Shown: positions 620 through 58,594 of the stretch, piece by piece | How positions within the stretch are numbered: position 1 is the first letter of the stretch | Layout: each line of letters opens with the position of its first letter | DNA from: Bacteriovoracaceae bacterium | GTDB lineage: Bacteria > Bdellovibrionota > Bacteriovoracia > Bacteriovoracales > Bacteriovoracaceae | Length of the DNA stretch: 60,372 nt | Direction: 5' to 3' | Assembly: GCA_049599895.1 (NCBI GenBank) | Contig: JBMYPC010000002.1 | Span: 1 to 60,372, forward strand | Program-made: the position numbers and the translations under genes | Notes under the pieces: generated by a model | Databases searched by the model: none | What the model was told of the DNA's origin: nothing | What the model saw: the letters and a program-made list of their open reading frames with translations, nothing else

Positions 620-2086
620 TTAATTTTCAGCAACATCGTTATTCTTACGACTTTCTTCGATTAATTTATCAAGAACTTTTGCCATGGGTTGTCCTTTATT
701 AGAAGCTGTTATGGAGTATTGTTTCCAACGTAAGGGTATGGAGTCTTTTATGTTCCAGTCATTATAAGATCCAAGATAGGAATCTGCGATACTTTCGGCT
801 TTTGAGTTTTTAACGTTAGTCCATAAAAAATCAGGATGCATCATCTGATACCATTCACCACCGATAATTTCTCTGTTTGCGTTCAATTCAAGATCATAAT
901 AATAGCGAACATTGGCCTCGTTATCGTTATGTTCACCATCTGTCTCTCTGTGGCTTGGTGTTGATTCTAGGGCGTAAATAACATCTGCTACAACACCGAC
1001 AACATACTTTGCTTTTTCTGATCTATAGTTTTGATAAACATCGTTTTCAAAACTATCAATTGCAACTTCTGCTATTTCAAGTTTGTCAGTCTCTTCTTGA
1101 GTTTTGGGATTGAAGTATTGGTAGGAATATTCAATGACTGGTTGATTCCAAACTTCATAGTCATAAGTGGCATCCATAATAAAACTTCTCTTTCGGATAC
1201 CTATTTCATTAACAAGGGCCATGTGAAACGAAGCTGGATTATTGTCATAACATTCATCCTCGATGACTCTGCCATTCTCTTCATCTATCTTTGGCTCTTT
1301 ACTATTACAACGGCCACCTATGAAAAGAGTTGGAGTTCTCACGTTAGCATATAAAAGAGATGCTAGGGCCTTGATATCACTTGGATAAAACTTAATGTCA
1401 GTCACACCGTCAAATGCTTTCACCGTCACGGCTTTCTTTGGCCTTTTGAGATTGTATGAAGCTATCGCCCAACCATGACAGATACCCATCCAGCTCTCTA
1501 CTTCACCATACTTATAATAATACTGAAGTCCTGACTTCCAGCTATACTCGGTGAGGGGAAAGTTTTGTGAACTGAAAAGAAGATCATACTTCTCAGAAGG
1601 CGACATCATATCAATTCTTTTTTCATCCCATAAAAGCGGCGAGGGATTTTCTTTGTAATAATCATAAAGCTCTTTAAATTCAAAGTGGTTCGTGAACTCT
1701 GGATCACTATACCTTGCTCCAAGACCACCTTTAGCGAGTGCCCAATAATCATCAGACCAAGGCCTTTCACTGACTCGTCCAGAAGCCAATTGATAACTTT
1801 CCATCTCGGTTAAGTTTTTTATGATTTCACCTTCGATAACAAAGTTGGCAATATCATCGTTTCGTTTATAACCTGCTTTAAAATTGATATTAGGGAGTTG
1901 TCTTTGGTTTTTAAATTTCGAAAAGTCTTGTTCATCTCGACCGTATTTATAGGTTTTATGAGGAGGTTCCCAACTTGCAGCTTTGGGATCATCTTGAAAT
2001 CTCTCGAGAAAGCTAGCTTTTTCAGAGAAAAGGTTTTTGGCCAAGAATCCACTAAATACGAGTATTAGAATGGCGGTAGTTCTCAT
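620..2086 (-). CDS. Secreted transglutaminase-elicitor (GP42-like) family protein
   Basis: Signal peptide; PWSDDYW, SPSEKYD, catalytic WMGICHGW, DIKAL, NPASFH, EVWNQPV, YDLEL..IIGGEW..HPDFLW motifs. Confidence 0.85.
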   Translation of the reverse strand: MRTTAILILVFSGFLAKNLFSEKASFLERFQDDPKAASWEPPHKTYKYGRDEQDFSKFKNQRQLPNINFKAGYKRNDDIANFVIEGEIIKNLTEMESYQLASGRVSERPWSDDYWALAKGGLGARYSDPEFTNHFEFKELYDYYKENPSPLLWDEKRIDMMSPSEKYDLLFSSQNFPLTEYSWKSGLQYYYKYGEVESWMGICHGWAIASYNLKRPKKAVTVKAFDGVTDIKFYPSDIKALASLLYANVRTPTLFIGGRCNSKEPKIDEENGRVIEDECYDNNPASFHMALVNEIGIRKRSFIMDATYDYEVWNQPVIEYSYQYFNPKTQEETDKLEIAEVAIDSFENDVYQNYRSEKAKYVVGVVADVIYALESTPSHRETDGEHNDNEANVRYYYDLELNANREIIGGEWYQMMHPDFLWTNVKNSKAESIADSYLGSYNDWNIKDSIPLRWKQYSITASNKGQPMAKVLDKLIEESRKNNDVAEN

Positions 2087-2283
2087 AGGATTATTCCTTA
2101 TAATGAAAGAGATAGAGAAAATCTATTCCAGAAATCATAAGTTGTTATTCGTACAAAACAGATCAAGAACTGATTATTCTCAGTAATTTTTATAAAGATT
2201 GGGTCTGCGTTGCGTTAAAACCTGTATAAGTCTAGTGAATTTGTGTTAGTATCGATTTGTTTAGATTGATCGGAGTTTTTGAA

Positions 2284-2493
2284 ATGGCAAATTGTCGCTA
2301 CTGTGGAAAAGAAATTGTTTGGGTTCTTGAAGGAAAAAAGAAAGTTCCTCTTGATATGGATGGTGGCAAACATCAATGCGAGGAATTTAAAAACGCACGA
2401 AATTCTTTTAAAAAACTCACTCCAACAGACATAGATCCAGATATTTTAAAACAATATCAAGACAGCATGAATAAGGCCGCCAACAAAAAATAA
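2284..2493 (+). CDS. Small zinc-ribbon protein
   Basis: GGAG RBS then ATG 2284; CRYCGKEIVW...HQC metal-ligand pattern. Confidence 0.7.
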   Translation: MANCRYCGKEIVWVLEGKKKVPLDMDGGKHQCEEFKNARNSFKKLTPTDIDPDILKQYQDSMNKAANKK

Positions 2494-2723: not shown

Positions 2724-4202
2724 ATGACGTCAGTGGAAATACCTAACGAAAAAATGAACTGCCAAAACTTCACCAATGGAGAATTTGTAAATGGCAGCGG
2801 TGATCAATTTGATATTCACTCACCTTATAATGGCGAAGTAATCGGAACTTCAAATTCATCGACTAAAGAAGATGTGGACAAGGCCATTGAGTTTGCTGAT
2901 TTGGCCTTTCACAAATGGAAACAAACGCCTTTAAAAGAACGAACAAAAATAATGTTTGAATTTCGAAATCTTCTTTTAAGGGATATCGAGAGTCTTTCCC
3001 ATATTGTTTCTGCGGAAAATGGAAAGACTCACGCAGAATCAAAAGCAGGAATCCTTAAGGGGATTGAAGTTTTAGAGTTTGCTCTAAGCTTACAAAACTT
3101 AGATTCTGGGGCAAAAATGGAAGTGTCTCGTGGTGTTCAATGTGAATACCGAAGAGAACCCTTAGGTGTTGTTGCTAATATTACCCCTTTTAATTTCCCA
3201 GCGATGGTCCCTATGTGGACTCTTCCCATTGTGATCACACTTGGAAACTCATATGTCTGGAAACCATCTGAAAAAACACCTCTTACCTCTCACTATATGG
3301 CAAAGCTTTTTAAAGAAGCTGGTCTTCCTGATGGTGTCCTCACTGTTCTTCAGGGTGAGAAAGAATCAGTTAATGCCATTATTGAACATCCAAAAGTCAA
3401 AGCAGTGGGTTTTGTCGGTTCAACTAAAATTGCAAAACTTGTTTATTCTAAAGCCACGAGCTTAGGAAAAAGGGCCCTCGCTCTTGGTGGAGCAAAGAAC
3501 CATATCATCCTTCTTCCAGACGCTGACAATGAAATTTCTGGCCGCGGAATCAGTGATTCATTCACTGGCTGTGCAGGTCAGAGGTGTATGGCCGCAAGTG
3601 TTCTTCTTGCAGTTGGCGACACAGACACTCAAATTGAACACATTGTAAAAAGAGCAAAGTCCAATGAACTTGGAAAAAGCATGGGTGCCATTATCACTCA
3701 AAAACAAGTTCAGTTTCTCAATGATTCAATTGCTCAAGCAGAAAAAGATGGAGCTAAAATTTTACTCGATGGAAGAAAGACCCAAGTTCCCAGTGAATAT
3801 GAAAAGGGATTTTGGGTGGGGCCAACAATTCTCGACAATGTAAACCCCGAGAGTGACGCTGCCAGAGTCGAACTTTTTGGCCCAATCATAAGCATCATTC
3901 GCTGCGAGAATTTAACTCAGGCCCTCGAAATTGAAAATCAAACCCCCTACGGTAATGCCTGTTCCGTTTTTACAGATAACGGCGCTCTCGCTGAAAGAGT
4001 ATCTAAAGAAGCCAGCGCAGGAATGGTCGGAATCAACGTAGGTGTCCCTGTTCCTCGTGAACCATTTTCATTTGGTGGGATTAACGACTCTAAGTTTGGC
4101 CATGGAGATATCACAGGAGTTCATTCCCTAAACTTCTGGAGCAATGTGAAAAAAGTCACAACGAAATGGGAAATGCAAAAAGATAATAATTGGATGTCAT
4201 AA
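2724..4202 (+). CDS. mmsA: CoA-acylating (methyl)malonate-semialdehyde dehydrogenase
   Basis: ALDH fold with ITPFNFPAMVPMW, KPSE, FVGST, GGAKNH, GCAGQRCMA, GMVGINVGVPVPREPFSFGG; AAGGA RBS favours ATG 2724. Confidence 0.9.
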   Translation: MTSVEIPNEKMNCQNFTNGEFVNGSGDQFDIHSPYNGEVIGTSNSSTKEDVDKAIEFADLAFHKWKQTPLKERTKIMFEFRNLLLRDIESLSHIVSAENGKTHAESKAGILKGIEVLEFALSLQNLDSGAKMEVSRGVQCEYRREPLGVVANITPFNFPAMVPMWTLPIVITLGNSYVWKPSEKTPLTSHYMAKLFKEAGLPDGVLTVLQGEKESVNAIIEHPKVKAVGFVGSTKIAKLVYSKATSLGKRALALGGAKNHIILLPDADNEISGRGISDSFTGCAGQRCMAASVLLAVGDTDTQIEHIVKRAKSNELGKSMGAIITQKQVQFLNDSIAQAEKDGAKILLDGRKTQVPSEYEKGFWVGPTILDNVNPESDAARVELFGPIISIIRCENLTQALEIENQTPYGNACSVFTDNGALAERVSKEASAGMVGINVGVPVPREPFSFGGINDSKFGHGDITGVHSLNFWSNVKKVTTKWEMQKDNNWMS

Positions 4203-4219
4203 ATATTTGAGGAAAAATT

Positions 4220-5476
4220 ATGAGTGAGCACAAAAGAGTTTCACATGTGGTTCTCACATCACATGCAAACCAAAGTTACAAAGATACATTACCTGTTAAA
4301 TGGGGCGCAAAAGACCCTAAAGAAAGAGGACCCGTAGTCGCGACGATCTCAGACAAAGGCGATCGCAACGCCATTGGAAGTCATAGTGGAAGCTATACAG
4401 TTTATCGCGCCCTTTCGATCGCCTCTGGGGCGTTTCCAAAAGATCATAAACCTGATCTTGAAAATACTGAACCGACAAGTGAGATTCTTCCACAACCTTC
4501 ATGGTTTGATCCAACAAAAATGGTTTCAATTGATCCATGGGGAGCGCATGTTAATGTTGTCTTCAAAGATCTTATTGATAAGGGTCTTAATATTAAACCG
4601 ACAATTGCCGTAACTCAGGCACGCCTTCATATCCCAGAAGTTCAAGAGGCCATTGATAAAGGTCGATTAAAGATTGATGGTGATATTGTTTCAGAAAATA
4701 AAGATGTCAAAGTCACCAAAGTTGCTTTTGAACCTGTATGGCATCTTCCTGAGATGGCGAAAAGGTTTAACCTTGAAGAAGGTGAATTGAGAAAAGTCCT
4801 CTTTGAAGAAACGGGGGGAATGTTTCCTGAGCTCATTACAAGGCCAGATCTTAAAGTTCTGCTTCCGCCAATTGGAAGTACAACCGCCTATATTTTTGGT
4901 GATGTTAAAAACCTTTCAAATCCAGATATAGAACTGACTTGTCGTGTTCATGACGAGTGCAACGGCTCTGATGTTTTTGGATCAGATATCTGCACCTGCA
5001 GACCTTATCTTACCTACGGCGTTGAAGATGCGGCGAGAACTGCTCAACGTGGCGGTGTTGGACTCATTGTTTATTTTAGAAAAGAAGGAAGGGCTTTGGG
5101 AGAAGTGACAAAGTTTCTCGTCTATAATGCTCGAAAAAGACAAGAAGGTGGCGACAGTGCCGCTAACTACTTTCACCGCACAGAATGTGTTGCAGGGGTT
5201 CAGGATGCTCGATTTCAAGAGTTCATGCCTGATATCCTTCATTACTTTGGAGTCAAAAAGATTCATAACCTCCACTCAATGAGTAATATGAAATACGACG
5301 CAATCGTTGGTAGCGGCATTGAAGTGATTAACAGACTCTCAATTCCTAAAGAACTCATTCCTGACGATGCCCAGGTTGAAATTGAGGCGAAAAAAGCTGC
5401 AGGATATTTCACTCCAGATGATGTTAAAGACGATAATGAACTTCAAAAAGTTCAAGGTCGAAAACTAGAGGAATAA
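4220..5476 (+). CDS. urc1: URC1/Urg1-type GTP cyclohydrolase II-like protein (uracil catabolism)
   Basis: Long N-terminal extension (WGAKDPKERGPVVAT, RNAIGSHSGSY) plus RVHDECNGSDVFGSDICTC Zn site and RKEGRALGEVTKFLVYNARK, diagnostic of URC1 rather than RibA. Confidence 0.9.
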   Translation: MSEHKRVSHVVLTSHANQSYKDTLPVKWGAKDPKERGPVVATISDKGDRNAIGSHSGSYTVYRALSIASGAFPKDHKPDLENTEPTSEILPQPSWFDPTKMVSIDPWGAHVNVVFKDLIDKGLNIKPTIAVTQARLHIPEVQEAIDKGRLKIDGDIVSENKDVKVTKVAFEPVWHLPEMAKRFNLEEGELRKVLFEETGGMFPELITRPDLKVLLPPIGSTTAYIFGDVKNLSNPDIELTCRVHDECNGSDVFGSDICTCRPYLTYGVEDAARTAQRGGVGLIVYFRKEGRALGEVTKFLVYNARKRQEGGDSAANYFHRTECVAGVQDARFQEFMPDILHYFGVKKIHNLHSMSNMKYDAIVGSGIEVINRLSIPKELIPDDAQVEIEAKKAAGYFTPDDVKDDNELQKVQGRKLEE

Positions 5477-5479
5477 TTA

Positions 5480-6706
5480 ATGGAGTTAACAAAAGAACAA
5501 GTTGATTATCTTCTTTCCCCTAAAGCGATTAGAGAAAGAACGAAAGGAATCTACGAAAGAGCGCTGAATGATAAGACTCACTTTCAAATTCACGAAGAGA
5601 AATTAAAACAAGTCTCTGACTTTGTCCTTGAGACGATTAAAGAAAACTACCCAGACCTCAAGATCCCCTTTCACTCAAGATGGGGTCATTTTAAAGTTGG
5701 GGGAATTAACAGAGTCGACAACCTCGATCAATCTCTTGAAAAAACAGACTTAACTCCACTGCAAAAGGCGAAAGCAAAAATTGATCTCGTCGTCACATCG
5801 GTCTTACTAGATGCCGGTGCTGGTCCTGACTGGAGTTATCATGAAGAGTCATCTAAAAAAGAATTCAATCGCTCAGAAGGACTTGGCGTCGCAAGCTTTT
5901 ATATGTTTCTTGAAGGACGCTTCTCTGGCCTCGAGACAAACCCTCTTCAAGCAGACATGAAAGGCCTAAAAGGCCTAACGACCCAGACTTTTAAAGATTG
6001 TTTTCAAGTCAAAGAAGACAACCCGCTTGTTGGTGTCGAAGGACGTGTAAACCTCATTAATTCTCTAGGAAAATGTATTGAAAATAACAAAACGTTTTTT
6101 CCAGATGGAAGAGTTGGTGGGCTCCTTGATTACCTTCAATCAAACTTTGGTAATGAAGTTGAGGCCCAAGATCTTCTGAAATCAGTCCTTCTTTCTCTAG
6201 GATCAATTTGGCCAGGGCGAATTCAAGCAGGAGATGTTCATCTTGGAGACGTTTGGAAACATTCTCTTCTTGATGAAAAAGAAGGTTTTGATTCTCTTGT
6301 TCCTTTTCATAAGCTTTCACAATGGCTTACCTATTCCCTAGTTGAACCGATTGAAGAGGCCGGATTTAAGATTTTAAACCCACATCATCTCACCGGACTT
6401 GCTGAATACCGTAACGGTGGCCTTTTAATTGATAAGGGTCTTATTTCATTAAGAGATCCAGAACTTCTGAAAGTTTCCCATAAACCTTCAAGTGAAATTA
6501 TTATCGAATGGCGCGCCCTCACTATAACTTTACTTGATCAAATTGCTGATATTGTCAGAGAGTCATTAGGTTTTAGCGCTAAAGAGTTTCCCCTAGCAAA
6601 AGTTTTAGAAGGTGGAACTTGGTGGGCCGGACGCAAGGCCGCAAAAGAAAAAAGAAGTGATGGAACGCCTCCATTAAAGCTTGATAGCGATGGAACCGTT
6701 TTTTAA
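5480..6706 (+). CDS. urc4: URC4/Urg3 (DUF1688) family protein
   Basis: IPFHSRWGHF, SVLLDAGAG..W, RSEGL, PFHKLSQWLTYSL, LTGLAEYRNGGLL, KVLEGGTW, SDGTVF C-terminus. Confidence 0.92.
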   Translation: MELTKEQVDYLLSPKAIRERTKGIYERALNDKTHFQIHEEKLKQVSDFVLETIKENYPDLKIPFHSRWGHFKVGGINRVDNLDQSLEKTDLTPLQKAKAKIDLVVTSVLLDAGAGPDWSYHEESSKKEFNRSEGLGVASFYMFLEGRFSGLETNPLQADMKGLKGLTTQTFKDCFQVKEDNPLVGVEGRVNLINSLGKCIENNKTFFPDGRVGGLLDYLQSNFGNEVEAQDLLKSVLLSLGSIWPGRIQAGDVHLGDVWKHSLLDEKEGFDSLVPFHKLSQWLTYSLVEPIEEAGFKILNPHHLTGLAEYRNGGLLIDKGLISLRDPELLKVSHKPSSEIIIEWRALTITLLDQIADIVRESLGFSAKEFPLAKVLEGGTWWAGRKAAKEKRSDGTPPLKLDSDGTVF

Positions 6707-6731
6707 AAATAAAATTGAAACTGGAGCAAAT

Positions 6732-7355
6732 ATGAACTTTCATCAAATTTCTCATCCCGTGATTTCACATAAATTGAGTTTCCTTAGAGACAAGGAAACT
6801 AAGCCTCAAGAATTTAGAGGCATCATGAATGAACTCAGTCGAATAGTGGTCTACGAGGCCACAAAAGATCTTTCAACCACATCAATATCTGTTGAAACCC
6901 CTATCTCAAAAGCAAACTGTGAAAGAATTGAAGACAAACCCATCCTTCTTTCTATTATGAGAGCTGGCAATGGCATGCTTGAAGGGGCCCTTTCACTACT
7001 TCCTTTTGCCAGTACAGGTCATATAGGAATTTATCGGGATAAGTTCATTGGAAACACTGTTGAGTATTATTTTAAACTTCCAAAAGACTACAAAAATCAC
7101 CCTCTGATTCTTATGGATCCACTAATTGCCACAGGCGACACCATTCTTGCTTGTTTAGACAGAATTAAAAACTACGAAGTTGGAAAAATTAAAATTGTCT
7201 CAATACTCGTCTCTCCACTCGCTCTTGAAAAGATCGAAGAGTTTCACCCAGATGTGGAAGTTTATGCTGTATCCAAAGAAGAAGGTTTAAATGACAAAGG
7301 TTATCTCTTGCCAGGTATTGGCGACGCAGGAGATCGCCTTTATGGAATCCAGTAA
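6732..7355 (+). CDS. upp: Uracil phosphoribosyltransferase
   Basis: HKLSFLRD, SIMRAG, GHIGIYRD, DPLIATG, GYLLPGIGDAGDRLYG; GGAG RBS before ATG 6732. Confidence 0.93.
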   Translation: MNFHQISHPVISHKLSFLRDKETKPQEFRGIMNELSRIVVYEATKDLSTTSISVETPISKANCERIEDKPILLSIMRAGNGMLEGALSLLPFASTGHIGIYRDKFIGNTVEYYFKLPKDYKNHPLILMDPLIATGDTILACLDRIKNYEVGKIKIVSILVSPLALEKIEEFHPDVEVYAVSKEEGLNDKGYLLPGIGDAGDRLYGIQ

Positions 7356-7357
7356 GG

Positions 7358-7993
7358 ATGAAATCTCATAAACAACCCTATATTGTCGGGATCGCAGGAG
7401 GAAGTGGCTCAGGAAAAACCACCTTTGCCAGTAGATTAAAGGAGAGATTTGAAAATCAATATCCTCACCTCACCTGTAAAATCCTTCTCCAAGACAATTA
7501 CTATATCGATCAAAGTCATAAGTTTGATCACGATGGCGGATCAGTTAATTTTGATCACCCCGAAAGTTTGGACTTTGACCTTATGGCAACACATCTTAAG
7601 CAAATAAAACGAGGTCAAAGCATCGAGATACCTCAATATGACTTTAAAACCCATACAAGGCAGAAAGAGACAAATCACTTAAGCGCTCCAGACGTTCTCT
7701 TAATTGACGGCATCCTCATCCTTCATCCAGAAAATGTATCTAATGAGTTTGATCATTCAATCTTTGTCGAGGCCCCAGAAGATTTGAGATATTCAAGACG
7801 TCTCAAAAGAGACGTGGAAGAAAGAGGACGAACACCAGAAGGGGTTCAAGAGCAATTTCAAAAACAAGTCAAACCAATGCACGACCATTTTGTTGAACCG
7901 ACAAAACTTAAGTCAAATCTTAGAGTCACCGTCGAAAGCTTCGACGACGACCTTGAAATAACATTCAAGTATTTACTTGAAAAACTTAGCTAA
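7358..7993 (+). CDS. udk: Uridine kinase
   Basis: GIAGGSGSGKTT P-loop, QDNYY, NFDHP, YDFKTHTR, RRLKRDVEERGR, KPMH..FVEP. Confidence 0.93.
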   Translation: MKSHKQPYIVGIAGGSGSGKTTFASRLKERFENQYPHLTCKILLQDNYYIDQSHKFDHDGGSVNFDHPESLDFDLMATHLKQIKRGQSIEIPQYDFKTHTRQKETNHLSAPDVLLIDGILILHPENVSNEFDHSIFVEAPEDLRYSRRLKRDVEERGRTPEGVQEQFQKQVKPMHDHFVEPTKLKSNLRVTVESFDDDLEITFKYLLEKLS

Positions 7994-8005: not shown

Positions 8006-9919
8006 TTACGACAAGTCTTTATGTCCCTGAATTAAACCTTCAACAACTGCAGGGTCTGCTAAAGTCGAAATATCTCCAAGCTGTTTATATTCGCCACCTG
8101 CAATCTTACGAAGAATTCTTCGCATCACTTTTCCACTTCGAGTTTTAGGAAGGCCAGTGCAGATTTGAATTTTATCTGGGCGGGCGATTTTACCAATCTC
8201 TTTTGCCACAAACTCCGTTGCTGATTGAATCACTTCATCAGTGGCCGTGGAATCTTCTTGTTTTATAATATAAGCGAATATTCCCGTCCCTTTGATTTCG
8301 TGATCGAAACCAACGACTGCCACCTCTCCCACAAGAGGACATTTCATAATCGCTGATTCAATTTCTGCTGTTCCGAGTCTATGCCCTGAAACATTGATCA
8401 CATCATCAATTCTTCCTGTGATCCAATAATCTCCTGACTCATCTCTTTTTGCTCCATCTCCGGCAAAATAAAGACCTTGATATTGAGAAAAATAGACTTG
8501 AAGATAGCGATCGTGATCACCATAAATTGTTCTCGCCTGACCAGGCCACGGGTTTCTCAAACAAAGTGCCCCTTCTTTAGCGTTACCAATAAGTTCTTCA
8601 CCAGTAGAAGCTTCAACTAAAAGGGGATCAATGCCATAAAGTGGTCGAGTTGCTGAACCAGCTTTTAAAGGAGTCACCCCAGGAATTGGAGAAATTAATA
8701 TTCCACCGGTTTCTGTTTGCCACCAAGTATCCACAATAGGAGTTTGATTTTTTCCGACCTTGTCATAATACCAATGCCAAATTTCAGGGTTGATAGGCTC
8801 ACCGACCGTTCCTAAAACTTTCAGACTCTCTCTGGAAGTTCCTTCAAGATAGCTATCTCCTTTTTGAGCTAAGGCCCTTAATGCTGTTGGTGCTGTATAA
8901 AAAACATCAATTTTTAAATCATCAATAATTTTCCAATACCTTGAAGCATCAGGGTAAACTGGAGTGGACTCAAACATAACTGTCGTTACTCCATTGGCAA
9001 GCGGTCCATAAACGATGTAGGAATGACCTGTAATCCAACCAATATCGGCAGCACAAAAATACTGCCGCTCAGAGCCTTGAGGGCAAGCAAAAACATTCTC
9101 ATGGGTAAAAGAAGCATAAGTGAGATAGCCACCACTAGTATGGAGTAGCCCCTTAGGTTTTCCAGTTGAACCAGATGTATAAAGAATAAAAAGAGGTGTT
9201 TCAGCAGCAAAGCTTTCTGGAATATGTTGGAAGGATTTCCCTTCAATTAATTCATCCCAATCAATATCGCGGGAACCTGAAGCCACTTCAGTATCAGTAT
9301 ATTTTTTAACAATCACTTTTTTTACACAATCAAGACCCTTTATCGCCTCGTTAGTAATTTCTTTAAGTGGGATTGCTTTTCCTCCTCGAAGACCTTCGTT
9401 AGAAGTAATGACGATTTCTGACTGGCAATCTTCAATTCGGTCTCTCAGGGCCTTGGATGAAAAGCCTGCAAAAACCACAGAATGAATCGCACCAATTCTC
9501 GCACAAGCAAGCATCGCAACAGGAAGCTCTGGGATCATAGGAAGGTATAAGCAGACACGGTCACCTTTTTTTACACCAAGATCAATTAAGGCATTAGTAA
9601 ACTGACAGACTCTCTCTTTGAGATCTTTAAAACTAATTCTTTCATATTCGCCAAGCTGGTCTTTGGCCCAAATAATAGCTGTTTTATCAGGAGTTGCTTT
9701 TGCATGGCGATCAACACAGTTCACACTGACATTCAGTTTGCCATCTTCAAACCAAGTGAAGCTTCCTTCTTTGTAACCACCAGTAAGACTTTTTTTAGGA
9801 AAGAGATCCCAGTCAAGTCGCTTTGCTTTATCAAGCCAAAAATCGGGACTTTTAAGTGACTCTTCATAATCGTTCAAGTAAGCTTCAAATTGAGCTGCAT
9901 CACCTTGATAAGTATCCAT
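8006..9919 (-). CDS. acs: Acetyl-CoA synthetase (AMP-forming)
   Basis: YTSGSTGKPKG, ADIGWITGHSY, DTWWQTETGG, GRIDDVINVSGHRLGTAEIE, LPKTRSGKVMRR. Confidence 0.95.
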   Translation of the reverse strand: MDTYQGDAAQFEAYLNDYEESLKSPDFWLDKAKRLDWDLFPKKSLTGGYKEGSFTWFEDGKLNVSVNCVDRHAKATPDKTAIIWAKDQLGEYERISFKDLKERVCQFTNALIDLGVKKGDRVCLYLPMIPELPVAMLACARIGAIHSVVFAGFSSKALRDRIEDCQSEIVITSNEGLRGGKAIPLKEITNEAIKGLDCVKKVIVKKYTDTEVASGSRDIDWDELIEGKSFQHIPESFAAETPLFILYTSGSTGKPKGLLHTSGGYLTYASFTHENVFACPQGSERQYFCAADIGWITGHSYIVYGPLANGVTTVMFESTPVYPDASRYWKIIDDLKIDVFYTAPTALRALAQKGDSYLEGTSRESLKVLGTVGEPINPEIWHWYYDKVGKNQTPIVDTWWQTETGGILISPIPGVTPLKAGSATRPLYGIDPLLVEASTGEELIGNAKEGALCLRNPWPGQARTIYGDHDRYLQVYFSQYQGLYFAGDGAKRDESGDYWITGRIDDVINVSGHRLGTAEIESAIMKCPLVGEVAVVGFDHEIKGTGIFAYIIKQEDSTATDEVIQSATEFVAKEIGKIARPDKIQICTGLPKTRSGKVMRRILRKIAGGEYKQLGDISTLADPAVVEGLIQGHKDLS

Positions 9920-49206: not shown

Positions 49207-50829
49207 ATGGCGGATACACCGACAAACACTGAAGTTAAACTCATTCATTGGGCCGATATGACGGCGCAAAGAATCATAAAACAAAAAGGTGATCGAGACT
49301 CTTATACTCTCGCCAGTGGGATCACACCTTCGGGAGTTGTTCACTTTGGAAATTTTCGAGAAGTCATCACCGTCGACTTTGTGGCAAGGGCCTTGAGAGC
49401 CAGAGGAAAAAATGTTCGCTTTATCTTTAGTTGGGATGATTACGACACTTTTAGAAAAATCCCTGTCAATCTTCCCAAACAAGAACTGCTTCAAGAATAT
49501 CTTTTTCACCCTATCGTCGATACCCCCGATCCTTTTGAAGAGCATGAATCATACGCTGCCCACCATGAGGCCAACTTTGAAAAGCAACTTGAGAAAGTGG
49601 GAGTTGCCGTTGAACCACTTTACCAAGCAAAGAAATACAGAAATGGTGAGTACAAAGACTTTATTTTAGTGGCCTTAAAAAACACGGATAAAATTAAGGA
49701 TATCCTTAATCAACACAGAACCAGTCCCCTTGATGAAAAATGGCATCCAGTTTCTGTCTACTGCCCACTTCATAAAACTGATAAAACTCAAGTCATCGGT
49801 TTTGATGGTGAATCAAAACTCACCTATGTCCATACAGAACAAGAACATGAAGGGACAATTGATCTTAATAACCCTGAAGAACTTAAACATGTGAAACTTC
49901 CCTGGCGTGTGGATTGGCCTATGCGCTGGAGTTTTGAAAAAGTTGATTTTGAACCAGGTGGAAAAGATCATTCAAGCCAAGGCGGAAGTTACGACACCGC
50001 GAAAGACATCGTAAAACTCTACGATTGGGAAGCTCCAATTTATCTCCAATATGACTTTGTTTCCATTAAAGGTGCTGGCGGTAAGATGTCTTCTTCTAAA
50101 GGAAACCTCATTACCGTTAACGATGTTCTTAAAGTTTATGAACCCGAAATGGTAAGATGGATCTTTGCTAGCTACAAATCAAACGTCGATTTTGCCGTCA
50201 GCTTTGATCTTGATGTCATAAAAACTTACGAAGACTTCGATCGCCAAGAACGACTGGCCTTTGGAGTTGATCAAGGTAATGAAAAGAAAGTGGCCATGGC
50301 CAAAAGAGTTTATCAACTCTCACAAATTCAAGATTGCCCAGAACTCACTCCAGAAAATGCCCCCATGCAACCAAGCTTTCGTCACCTTTGTAATGTTCTT
50401 CAAATTAATGATGGAGATATTGAAAAGGCCAAAGTGGCTTATAATGATCAAATTAAGACAGAAAGAGACCAGAGACGATTTAATGAACGATCTCTTTGTG
50501 CCCTTCACTGGCTTGAAAACTATGCGCCAGTTGACTTTAAATTTAAAATCAACCCAACAGCACCAACTCTTGAAATCAGTGAGCTAGGAAAGAATTTTAT
50601 TAAAAAACTCTCAAGTTTCTTAGAGGTTGAATGGGATAACCTTAAGACCGATAAGGAACTTCATGAAGAACTCTATAAAGTCATTCACGAAGTTGAAATC
50701 GAACCTTCAGAGGCTTTTCTCATCACCTATAATCTTCTTATCTCAAGAGACAAAGGCCCAAAGCTTGCGGGCTTTATGAGATCAATAGGCAAAGAGAGAA
50801 TCCTTAACCTCCTTAATTCAGTGGCCTAA
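49207..50829 (+). CDS. lysS: Lysine--tRNA ligase, class I
   Basis: HWAD, SGITPSGVVHFGNFRE (HIGH-like), KLPWRVDWPMRW, EPGGKDH, KMSSSKGN, GPKL. Confidence 0.95.
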   Translation: MADTPTNTEVKLIHWADMTAQRIIKQKGDRDSYTLASGITPSGVVHFGNFREVITVDFVARALRARGKNVRFIFSWDDYDTFRKIPVNLPKQELLQEYLFHPIVDTPDPFEEHESYAAHHEANFEKQLEKVGVAVEPLYQAKKYRNGEYKDFILVALKNTDKIKDILNQHRTSPLDEKWHPVSVYCPLHKTDKTQVIGFDGESKLTYVHTEQEHEGTIDLNNPEELKHVKLPWRVDWPMRWSFEKVDFEPGGKDHSSQGGSYDTAKDIVKLYDWEAPIYLQYDFVSIKGAGGKMSSSKGNLITVNDVLKVYEPEMVRWIFASYKSNVDFAVSFDLDVIKTYEDFDRQERLAFGVDQGNEKKVAMAKRVYQLSQIQDCPELTPENAPMQPSFRHLCNVLQINDGDIEKAKVAYNDQIKTERDQRRFNERSLCALHWLENYAPVDFKFKINPTAPTLEISELGKNFIKKLSSFLEVEWDNLKTDKELHEELYKVIHEVEIEPSEAFLITYNLLISRDKGPKLAGFMRSIGKERILNLLNSVA

Positions 50830-56850: not shown

Positions 56851-57489
56851 ATGGCACTTACAAAAAAACAGAAAGAAGTCTTTGATTATATTCAGTCTTA
56901 CACAGCGCAAAATGGATATAGCCCTACCCAAAAAGAGATCAAAAACCACTTTGAGTTCAAGTCATTTGGCAGTGTTCAAAGATACCTTAAATACTTGAAA
57001 GAACACAACCTTTTAGAATCAGACTGGAACGCGAGACGTGGTATAAAAATCAGTGACGAGCAAACTCCCGTTAGTAACGACATTGATCAAAACTCAGACT
57101 TTGAAGCGATCCCTATGCTTGGAAGGGTCGCCGCTGGTAACCCCATTGAGGCAATTGAAAGAGCAAGTGAGAGCCTCTCTGTTCCACAAAATCTTCTTAA
57201 GGGTCGAGGTCGCTTTTTTGCCCTCGAAGTCCAAGGAGACTCCATGTGGGACGCGGGAATTCGCGAGGGAGACCATCTCATCTGTCGCCATGAACAAACT
57301 GCAAGAAACGGCCAAATCGTTGTGGCATTAGTTGACGGAGAGGCCACCGTTAAAACTTATCAGAAACAAAAGAATGAGATTCATCTCCTTCCAGAAAATG
57401 CGGACTACAATCCCATTATTGTCGATTGCCATAGCCAATTTAGTTTAGCCGGTGTTGTAATCGGACTCATTCGTAACTTTAATGTTTAA
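56851..57489 (+). CDS. lexA: LexA repressor
   Basis: LTKKQKEV wHTH, PTQKEI, RGI, GRVAAG cleavage site, GDSM Ser, EATVK Lys. Confidence 0.96.
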   Translation: MALTKKQKEVFDYIQSYTAQNGYSPTQKEIKNHFEFKSFGSVQRYLKYLKEHNLLESDWNARRGIKISDEQTPVSNDIDQNSDFEAIPMLGRVAAGNPIEAIERASESLSVPQNLLKGRGRFFALEVQGDSMWDAGIREGDHLICRHEQTARNGQIVVALVDGEATVKTYQKQKNEIHLLPENADYNPIIVDCHSQFSLAGVVIGLIRNFNV

Positions 57490-58594
57490 TGATTTTGATA
57501 AAATTATCATGCATCTTGATATGGATTGCTTTTTTGCGGCCATCGAAATGCGAGATAACCCCAAGCTTAAAAACCTCCCTATAGCAGTTGGAGGAAAGTC
57601 AAAACGATCAGTACTTTGCACAGCGAACTATGAAGCCCGAAAATATGGAGTACGTTCGGCAATGTCATCCCAGGTGGCCTTAAAGAAATGCCCGGATCTT
57701 AAAATCTTGCCTCCTCGATTTGAGGCCTATAAAGATGCATCCGATCAAGTGTTTAACATTATGAGGCGCTATTCAAAAAGCTTTCAGCCCTTAAGTCTTG
57801 ATGAAGCTTTTCTTGATCTCAGTCTTGATTGTCCTCACTTTGAATTCGCTGAAGATCTTGCAAGGGAAATCCAAAAAGAGATTTTAAGCGAAACAGGACT
57901 CACTTCCTCTATAGGAGTTTCCCATTTAAAGTTTCTCGCAAAGATTGCCAGTGATCATAACAAACCTCATGGCGTGACTATTATTCACCCTAAAGATGCT
58001 CTTTCATTTATTTCAGAGCTCCCCATTGAAAGATTCTCCGGGGTGGGACAAGTGATGCGTGAAAAACTGCACAAACATAACATCTATCGAAGTTCAGATC
58101 TTCTTGAAATCTCTCGTGAAGATCTTCACCGAAAGTTTGGAAAAATGGGCAATCTTCTTTGGCTTCGCTCTCGGGGCATTGACCATAGTCGAGTTAAAGT
58201 TTCCAGGTCCCCTAAATCCATTTCAATTGAAAGAACATTTGAGGTAGATCTTAATCTCGAGCAACTCAAAGTTGAATTGAAAAACCTTATTCCAGTTTTT
58301 CATGCGCGATACTCTCGATCTATGGAAAAATACCCAAACCTTAAAACGAAATCACTAATGATTAAATTAAAGCTTTCTGACCATCGAAAACGTGGGATCG
58401 AACGTTCACTCTCTGAGTTAAAAATCAAAAGTTTTAAAGAGCTTCAAGATGAAAGCTACTTTGAGAAATTTTCAGCTCTCTTAGAAAGTCTTTATTCTAA
58501 AAAAAATGAGCCTGTTCGGCTCTTAGGCTTAGGAGTTCGTGTCAAAGAAGAAGAGCTTGCCTATGAAAACCCTCAGCTCTCACTTTTGGCCTAG
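57482..58594 (+). CDS. dinB: DNA polymerase IV
   Basis: HLDMDCFFA, NYEARKYGVRSAM, SLDEAFLD, KFLAKIASD.NKP.G, VRLLG; overlaps lexA stop by 8 nt. Confidence 0.95.
   Translation: MFNDFDKIIMHLDMDCFFAAIEMRDNPKLKNLPIAVGGKSKRSVLCTANYEARKYGVRSAMSSQVALKKCPDLKILPPRFEAYKDASDQVFNIMRRYSKSFQPLSLDEAFLDLSLDCPHFEFAEDLAREIQKEILSETGLTSSIGVSHLKFLAKIASDHNKPHGVTIIHPKDALSFISELPIERFSGVGQVMREKLHKHNIYRSSDLLEISREDLHRKFGKMGNLLWLRSRGIDHSRVKVSRSPKSISIERTFEVDLNLEQLKVELKNLIPVFHARYSRSMEKYPNLKTKSLMIKLKLSDHRKRGIERSLSELKIKSFKELQDESYFEKFSALLESLYSKKNEPVRLLGLGVRVKEEELAYENPQLSLLA

Follow-up and report, generated by a model that had tools for sequence, protein, structure and literature searches.

Clusters for uracil catabolism (URC) that combine URC1, URC4 and uracil phosphoribosyltransferase are known in Lachancea kluyveri, in S. 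pombe (urg1-urg2-urg3) and in bacteria; in the available sections of the published accounts, ribosylurea is an intermediate of the yeast pathway and URC4 releases urea (PMC7530994, PMC2174524, PMC3869809). For clusters of the reductive pyrimidine (Pyd) route, closure by a malonic semialdehyde dehydrogenase (MSDH) has already been reported, as far as the available part of the source goes (PMC7332683). The URC pathway and its urc1-urc4-upp core are already published, as is the URC1 enzyme. Here, we analyze a five-gene operon of this type, mmsA-urc1-urc4-upp-udk, in a 60,372-nucleotide stretch of DNA from a Bacteriovoracaceae bacterium (GCA_049599895.1, contig JBMYPC010000002.1, denoted C2; hereafter, the window), part of a 3.27 Mb genome assembled in 266 contigs and 97.45% complete. 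Our analysis makes it likely that this operon serves to degrade uridine and uracil as sources of carbon and energy, by a route that would lead through UTP and malonate semialdehyde to acetyl-CoA. The genes of the operon are as follows.

mmsA (MSDH), 2724-4202, plus strand: CoA-acylating (methyl)malonate-semialdehyde dehydrogenase of 492 amino acids (aa), with a GQRC motif and Cys288.
urc1, 4220-5476, plus strand: UTP cyclohydrolase homolog of 418 aa, with a GTP cyclohydrolase II fold and an N-terminal domain.
urc4 (DUF1688), 5480-6706, plus strand: predicted Qng1-like nucleotide N-glycosidase of 408 aa, with Lys278, Glu309-Tyr310 and the terminal Phe408.
upp, 6732-7355, plus strand: uracil phosphoribosyltransferase of 207 aa.
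udk, 7358-7993, plus strand: uridine(-cytidine) kinase of 211 aa, with His99 at the base-specificity position.

The sequence-only reading of this DNA had described five co-directional genes with gaps of 2-25 nucleotides and had taken them for a URC-type operon. The genes are present at these positions, with all five open reading frames (ORFs) on the same strand and intergenic gaps of 17, 3, 25 and 2 nucleotides, and each product matches its family. MmsA scores 472 bits against the methylmalonate-semialdehyde dehydrogenase (MMSDH) model TIGR01722 (cut-off 448.5), and all of its top 10 PDB matches are MMSDH; URC1 matches NF005536 (728 bits, cut-off 403) as well as PF12471 and PF00925 and falls in the PRK07198 cyclohydrolase family; URC4 matches PF07958, that is, DUF1688 (495 bits, cut-off 25); Upp clears both NF001097 (229 bits, cut-off 114) and TIGR01091 (221, cut-off 208); and Udk clears NF004018 (222 bits, cut-off 180) but stays below TIGR00235 (192, cut-off 220). 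The identification as a URC-type operon is borne out by these family matches, by the gene order and by its conservation. Because the gene order is kept in relatives, the arrangement is not due to chance; as for the core, among loci with sufficient flanking sequence, urc4 comes next in 76 of 76 and upp in 67 of 67. All five genes are also present in Bdellovibrio bacteriovorus (L065). The tight spacing by itself suggests that the five genes are co-transcribed. The nearest named relatives of URC1 come from Bacteriovoracaceae and Oligoflexia (78-80% identity), a kinship that suggests a predatory lifestyle. A Bdellovibrionota-type operon was also observed in three loci titled Flavobacteriaceae, Sericytochromatia and Pseudomonadota (L045, L061 and L102), which could reflect transfer, mis-binning or loose titles.

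Under the model that we favor, prey RNA would serve as the feed, with Udk and Upp making UMP from uridine and uracil, respectively, and housekeeping PyrH and Ndk converting UMP to UTP (pyrH, ndk and nupC are present in the genome). URC1 would then open the ring at the UTP level, giving phosphoribosyl-urea and malonate semialdehyde, a step projected from the yeast pathway and from the neighboring genes. URC4 would cleave phosphoribosyl-urea to release urea and ribose-5-phosphate; oxidation of malonate semialdehyde by MmsA would yield acetyl-CoA, CO2 and NADH.

The link of mmsA to the URC pathway, proposed in the earlier reading from a single locus, turned out to be conserved. Our phylum sample comprised 301 genomes, with URC1 in 110 and MMSDH in 151; the MMSDH matches listed numbered 150, with 5 more outside the listing, and the adjacency and score-band counts given here rest on those listed. 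Some MMSDH was present in 108 of the 110 URC1 genomes compared to 43 of the 191 others, and mmsA lay directly 5' of urc1 in 83 of the 110. When matches were grouped by score, 90 fell in the band of 400-499 bits (32 clear the TIGR01722 cut-off and the remainder are just below it), and 88 of these were in URC1 genomes, including all 83 directly upstream of urc1. The band of 500-649 bits held 36 matches, 3 in URC1 genomes and 33 in genomes with dihydropyrimidinase, and all 8 annotated loci of this band were surrounded by genes of the reductive pathway. Another 21 matches scored at least 650 bits; five of the six inspected adjoin genes for acyl-CoA dehydrogenase, hydratase or HIBADH and are thus of the valine type. 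Of the 21, 17 come from genomes that carry URC1 in an operon devoid of mmsA. In a tree of 20 of the 45 rows (LG+G4 model, no outgroup), the URC-linked, Pyd-linked and valine-linked mmsA genes each fell into a clade of their own with full support; that of the URC-linked genes (100/100) grouped with two Pyd-linked copies as the nearest MSDHs.

A similar association was found in Cellvibrionaceae, where a distinct MMSDH lineage (37-41% identity) adjoins urc1 in 7 of 7 loci among the 80 named loci; mmsA is divergent in six of these, and the seventh has the order nupC-urc1-urc4-upp-udk-mmsA. A single clade uniting the urc1-linked mmsA genes of the phylum with those of Cellvibrionaceae was rejected (approximately unbiased test, p-AU 3e-38), and, judging by these sequences, mmsA was recruited beside urc1 twice, separately. 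The survey of URC1 plus DUF1688 neighborhoods suggested in the sequence-only reading has thus been carried out both for mmsA and for udk, which follows in 39 of 62 loci. Searches of the genome found neither HIBADH nor Pyd genes, and the best match to a beta-alanine aminotransferase was only 27% identical; a role of this mmsA in the valine or the reductive pyrimidine route was rejected because the partner genes were not found.

The distribution of the operon relative to the reductive route also bears on its physiological role. Dihydropyrimidinase was detected in 46 of the 301 genomes, and only 1 of these shares it with URC1, compared to 16.8 expected; within the four families that hold both traits, there was 1 genome with both compared to 9.1 expected. 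Both states occur, in different genomes, within the genera g5, g55 and g151. One genome (G185) carries the four-gene URC core, but its MSDH gene is at another site, next to the gene for an aminotransferase that has 60% identity to the Pyd-cluster enzyme; this looks like a replacement under way. From this pattern, we infer that the URC operon and the reductive Pyd cluster are interchangeable routes to the same aldehyde, both ending in MSDH.

The fate of nitrogen is consistent with such a role. In family searches whose controls gave matches, urease was found in 0 of the 301 genomes of the phylum, and none of 176 genomes yielded urea carboxylase. The statement of the earlier reading that the window encodes no urease or urea amidolyase held for the 46 window ORFs scanned, and the genome-wide search that it had proposed, conducted by family on this nearly complete assembly, yielded neither these enzymes nor urea carboxylase. 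There is also no amidase-family (PF01425) match in the genome, and so apparently no GatA. Because no urease or urea carboxylase was found, urea is probably discarded as waste, which fits the view that the operon yields carbon and energy rather than nitrogen. The operon contains no C3 reductase, although the genome as a whole was not searched for one; in yeast, the reductive end to 3-hydroxypropionate is provided by a URC8-type reductase. A version that may keep nitrogen was seen in Cellvibrionaceae (L060:92-13288), where urea ABC transporter genes and a LacI regulator accompany nupC-urc1-urc4-upp-udk-mmsA.

The URC1 protein most closely resembles the structures 7EEV and 7EJ3 (E 5e-174), which are entitled 'UTP cyclohydrolase' and reportedly stem from Zhang et al. 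(ACS Catal 2021;11:8895). Its AlphaFold model (pLDDT 79) matches both over the full length, with 64% identity and a TM score of 0.88, compared to only 16-19% identity with structures of true RibA (GTP cyclohydrolase II), and its scores fall below the RibA cut-offs (48 of 206 bits for TIGR00505 and 55 of 148 bits for NF001591); in NCBIfam, the family is named GTP cyclohydrolase II. Residues Cys247, Cys258, Cys260, Arg291, Lys298, Tyr302, Asp329, Arg331 and Lys358 are invariant across 48 aligned homologs, and the roles of these motif residues (the three cysteines and the Arg, Tyr, Asp and Lys positions) are presumably those of their RibA counterparts. Given that a relative with 64% identity has been solved under the title UTP cyclohydrolase, the ring-opening substrate is most likely UTP rather than UMP, the substrate named in the sequence-only reading; and because that relative is a bacterial URC1, the chemistry of the pathway is less open than the same reading had held. 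In two other genomes, urc1 is split in two pieces, by a frameshift or a sequencing error (G178:C8 and G300:C14).

For URC4, the evidence points to the superfamily of Qng1 and DNA glycosylases. In Qng1, according to the available text of the source, Asp231 is the likely nucleophile, Lys199 orients the ribose, and the C-terminal carboxylate lies in the active site (PMC9881137). A profile of 147 URC4 sequences run against the PDB ranked Qng1 structures first, albeit weakly (E 0.04), and aligned Lys278 with Lys199 of Qng1 and Glu309-Tyr310 with Asp231-Tyr232; a PDB search with the single sequence gave no match, and an Atlas feature search gave no usable one. Lys278, Glu309 and Tyr310 are kept in 143, 142 and 145 of the 147 homologs, respectively, and the terminal Phe in 144. 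The structural model of URC4 (pLDDT 96.9) matches human QNG1 at E 4e-10; superimposed on Qng1, it gives a Z score of 27.0 with a root-mean-square deviation of 3.1 A over 322 residues, DNA glycosylases coming next (Z 7-10), and the Atlas comparison with Qng1 gives a TM score of 0.69. By family models, URC4 matches PF07958 only and not PF10343, the Qng1 family proper, which appears as a secondary match in 2 of 120 close homologs. The main text of the Qng1 paper does not mention DUF1688 (PMC9881137). Among the longer homologs in the matches listed, 118 of 120 were URC1-URC4 fusions, in which URC4 is always last and, in 117 cases, the chain stops at the native URC4 end; gene order alone could explain the terminal location of URC4. 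Such fusion proteins are common (P0271-P0390) and occur in Hoyosella and in several protists and algae, among others.

On the strength of the fold and the aligned residues, URC4 is predicted to act as a glycosidase on phosphoribosyl-urea and so to release urea. The more specific proposal, in which Bdellovibrionota exchange URC and Pyd as unrelated modules around a retained MSDH with urea discarded, URC leads from UTP to acetyl-CoA, and URC4, the one enzyme of the module still without an assignment, belongs to the Qng1/DNA-glycosylase superfamily and acts as an N-glycosidase on 5'-phosphoribosyl-urea by means of Glu309, Lys278 and the free carboxylate of its C-terminal Phe, seems to us moderately probable.

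Upp and Udk are the enzymes predicted to feed UMP into the pathway. Upp is the only upp-like match in the genome and, being the single copy, may also serve salvage. Of two Thermus structures, Udk resembles 3W8R (His) rather than 3ASY (Tyr) at the position of His99. The 43 aligned relatives, without exception, also carry His there, a residue that we take to permit uridine. A second udk-like gene, on contig C164, is 38% identical and has Asn at this site. In six loci (L080, L083, L084, L086, L087 and L097), the URC cluster terminates in two upp genes arranged tail to tail.

Several observations weigh against this interpretation. The exclusivity statistics overstate the case in that the genomes are related and many assemblies are fragmentary, and the clade used in the approximately unbiased test was chosen after the first tree had been seen. 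An adjacent mmsA is missing in 27 of the 110 URC1 genomes; some of these are contig ends, and 16 belong to one family with a valine-type copy elsewhere. Neither is udk universal, as it follows in just 39 of the 62 loci. Neither mmsA nor udk was detected at any of 80 GC-rich URC loci (0 of the 47 that span at least 8 kb), and the two genes are unannotated at 3 of 3 plasmid URC loci, so that neither belongs to the URC core. The presence of pyrF indicates de novo pyrimidine synthesis, and a drain on UTP could therefore run as a futile cycle; the analysis nevertheless found neither a regulator nor a conserved operator. The sequence signal linking URC4 to Qng1 is weak, and Glu replaces Asp.

As an alternative, the same chemistry could serve another purpose, namely, draining surplus uridine nucleotides or recovering ribose-5-phosphate, with MmsA mainly removing a reactive aldehyde and acetyl-CoA being incidental. 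By simple arithmetic, the proposed UTP-level route would cost 2-4 phosphoanhydride bonds per base; moreover, mmsA is absent from the surroundings of most GC-rich URC loci, phosphopentomutase adjoins Microvirga URC loci, and the frequency of udk behind the operon core also fits a nucleotide drain. However, the operon begins with mmsA, an acylating dehydrogenase rather than a reductase has been kept, and the exclusivity with the Pyd route, which bypasses both ribose and UTP, points to use of the base. We consider this alternative rather unlikely.

It is still less probable, and in our judgment very unlikely, that URC1 also supplies the GTP cyclohydrolase II activity needed to make riboflavin. 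The idea draws on URC1 being the sole PF00925 match in a genome where ribD-ribE-ribB-ribH occurs without ribA and the rib operon on contig C71 carries a stand-alone ribB, on the NCBIfam name of the family, and on the presence of URC1 in 40 of 80 genomes with ribH but no ribA compared to 61 of 184 with both ribH and ribA. The ribA-negative set (80 of 264 ribH genomes) includes, in other families, ribBA genes with a RibA domain that lacks the cysteines. However, the other 40 of these 80 genomes have no URC1 either, and among them are six genomes of the same family in which ribD-E-B-H is arranged identically, three of these being assemblies of 5-9 contigs; conversely, 61 genomes keep both ribA and URC1. 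The title of the nearest solved relative, UTP cyclohydrolase, also speaks against this activity, and a ribB fragment of 43 codons, located at one end of contig C105, leaves room for an unassembled ribBA. URC1 as a general substitute for RibA was rejected given the 40 ribA-negative genomes without it, though it may have such a side activity. The first riboflavin intermediate may come from an unknown cyclohydrolase or be taken up from prey.

The riboflavin loci themselves show some unusual features. The ribD-ribE-ribB-ribH operon (G000:C71:12209-15005), with no ribA match in the genome, recurs in same-family genomes without URC1 (L251-L254, L265 and L266). In other families of the phylum (L255-L257, L259 and L261-L263), ribBA has a RibA domain without the zinc cysteines, and no ribD lies within 8 kb. 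The ribB-like fragment (G000:C105:2-130) is 60% identical to the C71 copy and abuts an unrelated gene, as a second copy or an assembly join.

That mmsA is an unrelated passenger of valine, inositol or beta-alanine catabolism, with upp and udk as ordinary salvage genes, is hardly credible: MMSDHs accept several semialdehydes, upp is the only copy in the genome, and, among mmsA genes of the same clade, five from URC1 genomes are not adjacent to urc1 and one more belongs to a genome that lacks URC1, but HIBADH and a close beta-alanine aminotransferase were not found in the genome in searches directed at the valine and beta-alanine routes, the valine-linked copies belong to another clade, and mmsA appears to have been recruited beside urc1 on two separate occasions.

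The operon is flanked by the following features.

Non-coding leader, 2494-2723, no strand assigned: presumed promoter and AAGGA ribosome-binding-like site; no conserved motif.
acsA, 8006-9919, minus strand: acetate-CoA ligase (TIGR02188, 876 bits); convergent neighbor outside the operon.

The AAGGA lies 8 nucleotides before the ATG at 2724, and an alternative in-frame ATG is located at 2715. Counts of regulatory signals were at chance level (7 promoter-like compared to 11.1 and 7 terminator-like compared to 5.1), no Rfam match fell in the leader and the only one obtained was a chance match (E 0.35), and no shared 8-mer or upstream motif stood out across 41 leaders. A place for acsA as the sixth member of the operon was rejected, as the 80 loci contained only one distant acs-like match (27%, L074). 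Just 5' of the leader, a small ORF (2257-2493, plus strand) encodes a CxxC motif followed further along by a His/Cys pair, with no family match. Elsewhere in the window, there are a 488-aa protein with a transglutaminase-elicitor domain (PF16683) and an apparent signal peptide (620-2086, minus strand), a class I lysyl-tRNA synthetase (49207-50829), and a lexA-like gene that overlaps a gene for a dinB-type polymerase (56851-58594, plus strand).

If these conclusions are valid, the URC pathway gains an oxidative, nitrogen-discarding end in predatory-type bacteria, DUF1688 acquires a precise reaction and mechanism, and the URC chemistry is completed in bacteria and fungi. In that case, the five-enzyme set should be amenable to reconstitution in vitro with NADH as the read-out, and a C-terminal tag should inactivate URC4, as reported for Qng1. 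Our literature search, which left subscription papers outside its scope and part of which was swamped by unrelated matches, found no paper on an mmsA-bearing URC operon, on the exclusivity of URC and Pyd, or on a link between URC4 and Qng1. The additions made here are this exclusivity, the evidence that mmsA was recruited a second time, and the argument for URC4 from individual residues; they represent a refinement of a known pathway and not a discovery.

Compared to the described systems, the window operon shares some traits and differs in others. With the 7EEV/7EJ3 type, its URC1 shares the full length and the motif residues, and UTP activity of the window protein itself is predicted from sequence and fold. 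URC4 and the queuosine-5'-monophosphate N-glycosylase Qng1/QNG1 (DUF2419) have the same fold (Z 27); in a weak sequence alignment, Lys278 and Glu309 of URC4 fall on the Lys and the acid described for Qng1 (PMC9881137), and each chain ends in a conserved aromatic residue at matching positions (407 in the model and 341 in 7UGK). The two differ in that identity is 13-18%, Glu stands for Asp, the family is DUF1688 rather than Q_salvage, and URC4 is predicted to act on a ureido nucleotide with an opened ring instead of queuosine. As proposed for the URC operon, the Pyd clusters close pyrimidine catabolism with a malonic semialdehyde dehydrogenase (PMC7332683), but they process the free base via PydA/B/C/D with release of ammonia and share no enzyme with URC before MSDH. 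Yeast URC has the core of URC1 (GTP cyclohydrolase II family), URC4 (DUF1688) and uracil phosphoribosyltransferase in common with the window; its final product is 3-hydroxypropionate, and urea amidolyase makes the nitrogen available, according to the same published sections as above (PMC7530994, PMC2174524, PMC3869809), whereas the window operon includes genes for a uridine kinase and an acylating dehydrogenase, and searches for urea-using enzymes gave none. The operon is a lineage-specific and probably oxidative, nitrogen-discarding variant of the published pathway.

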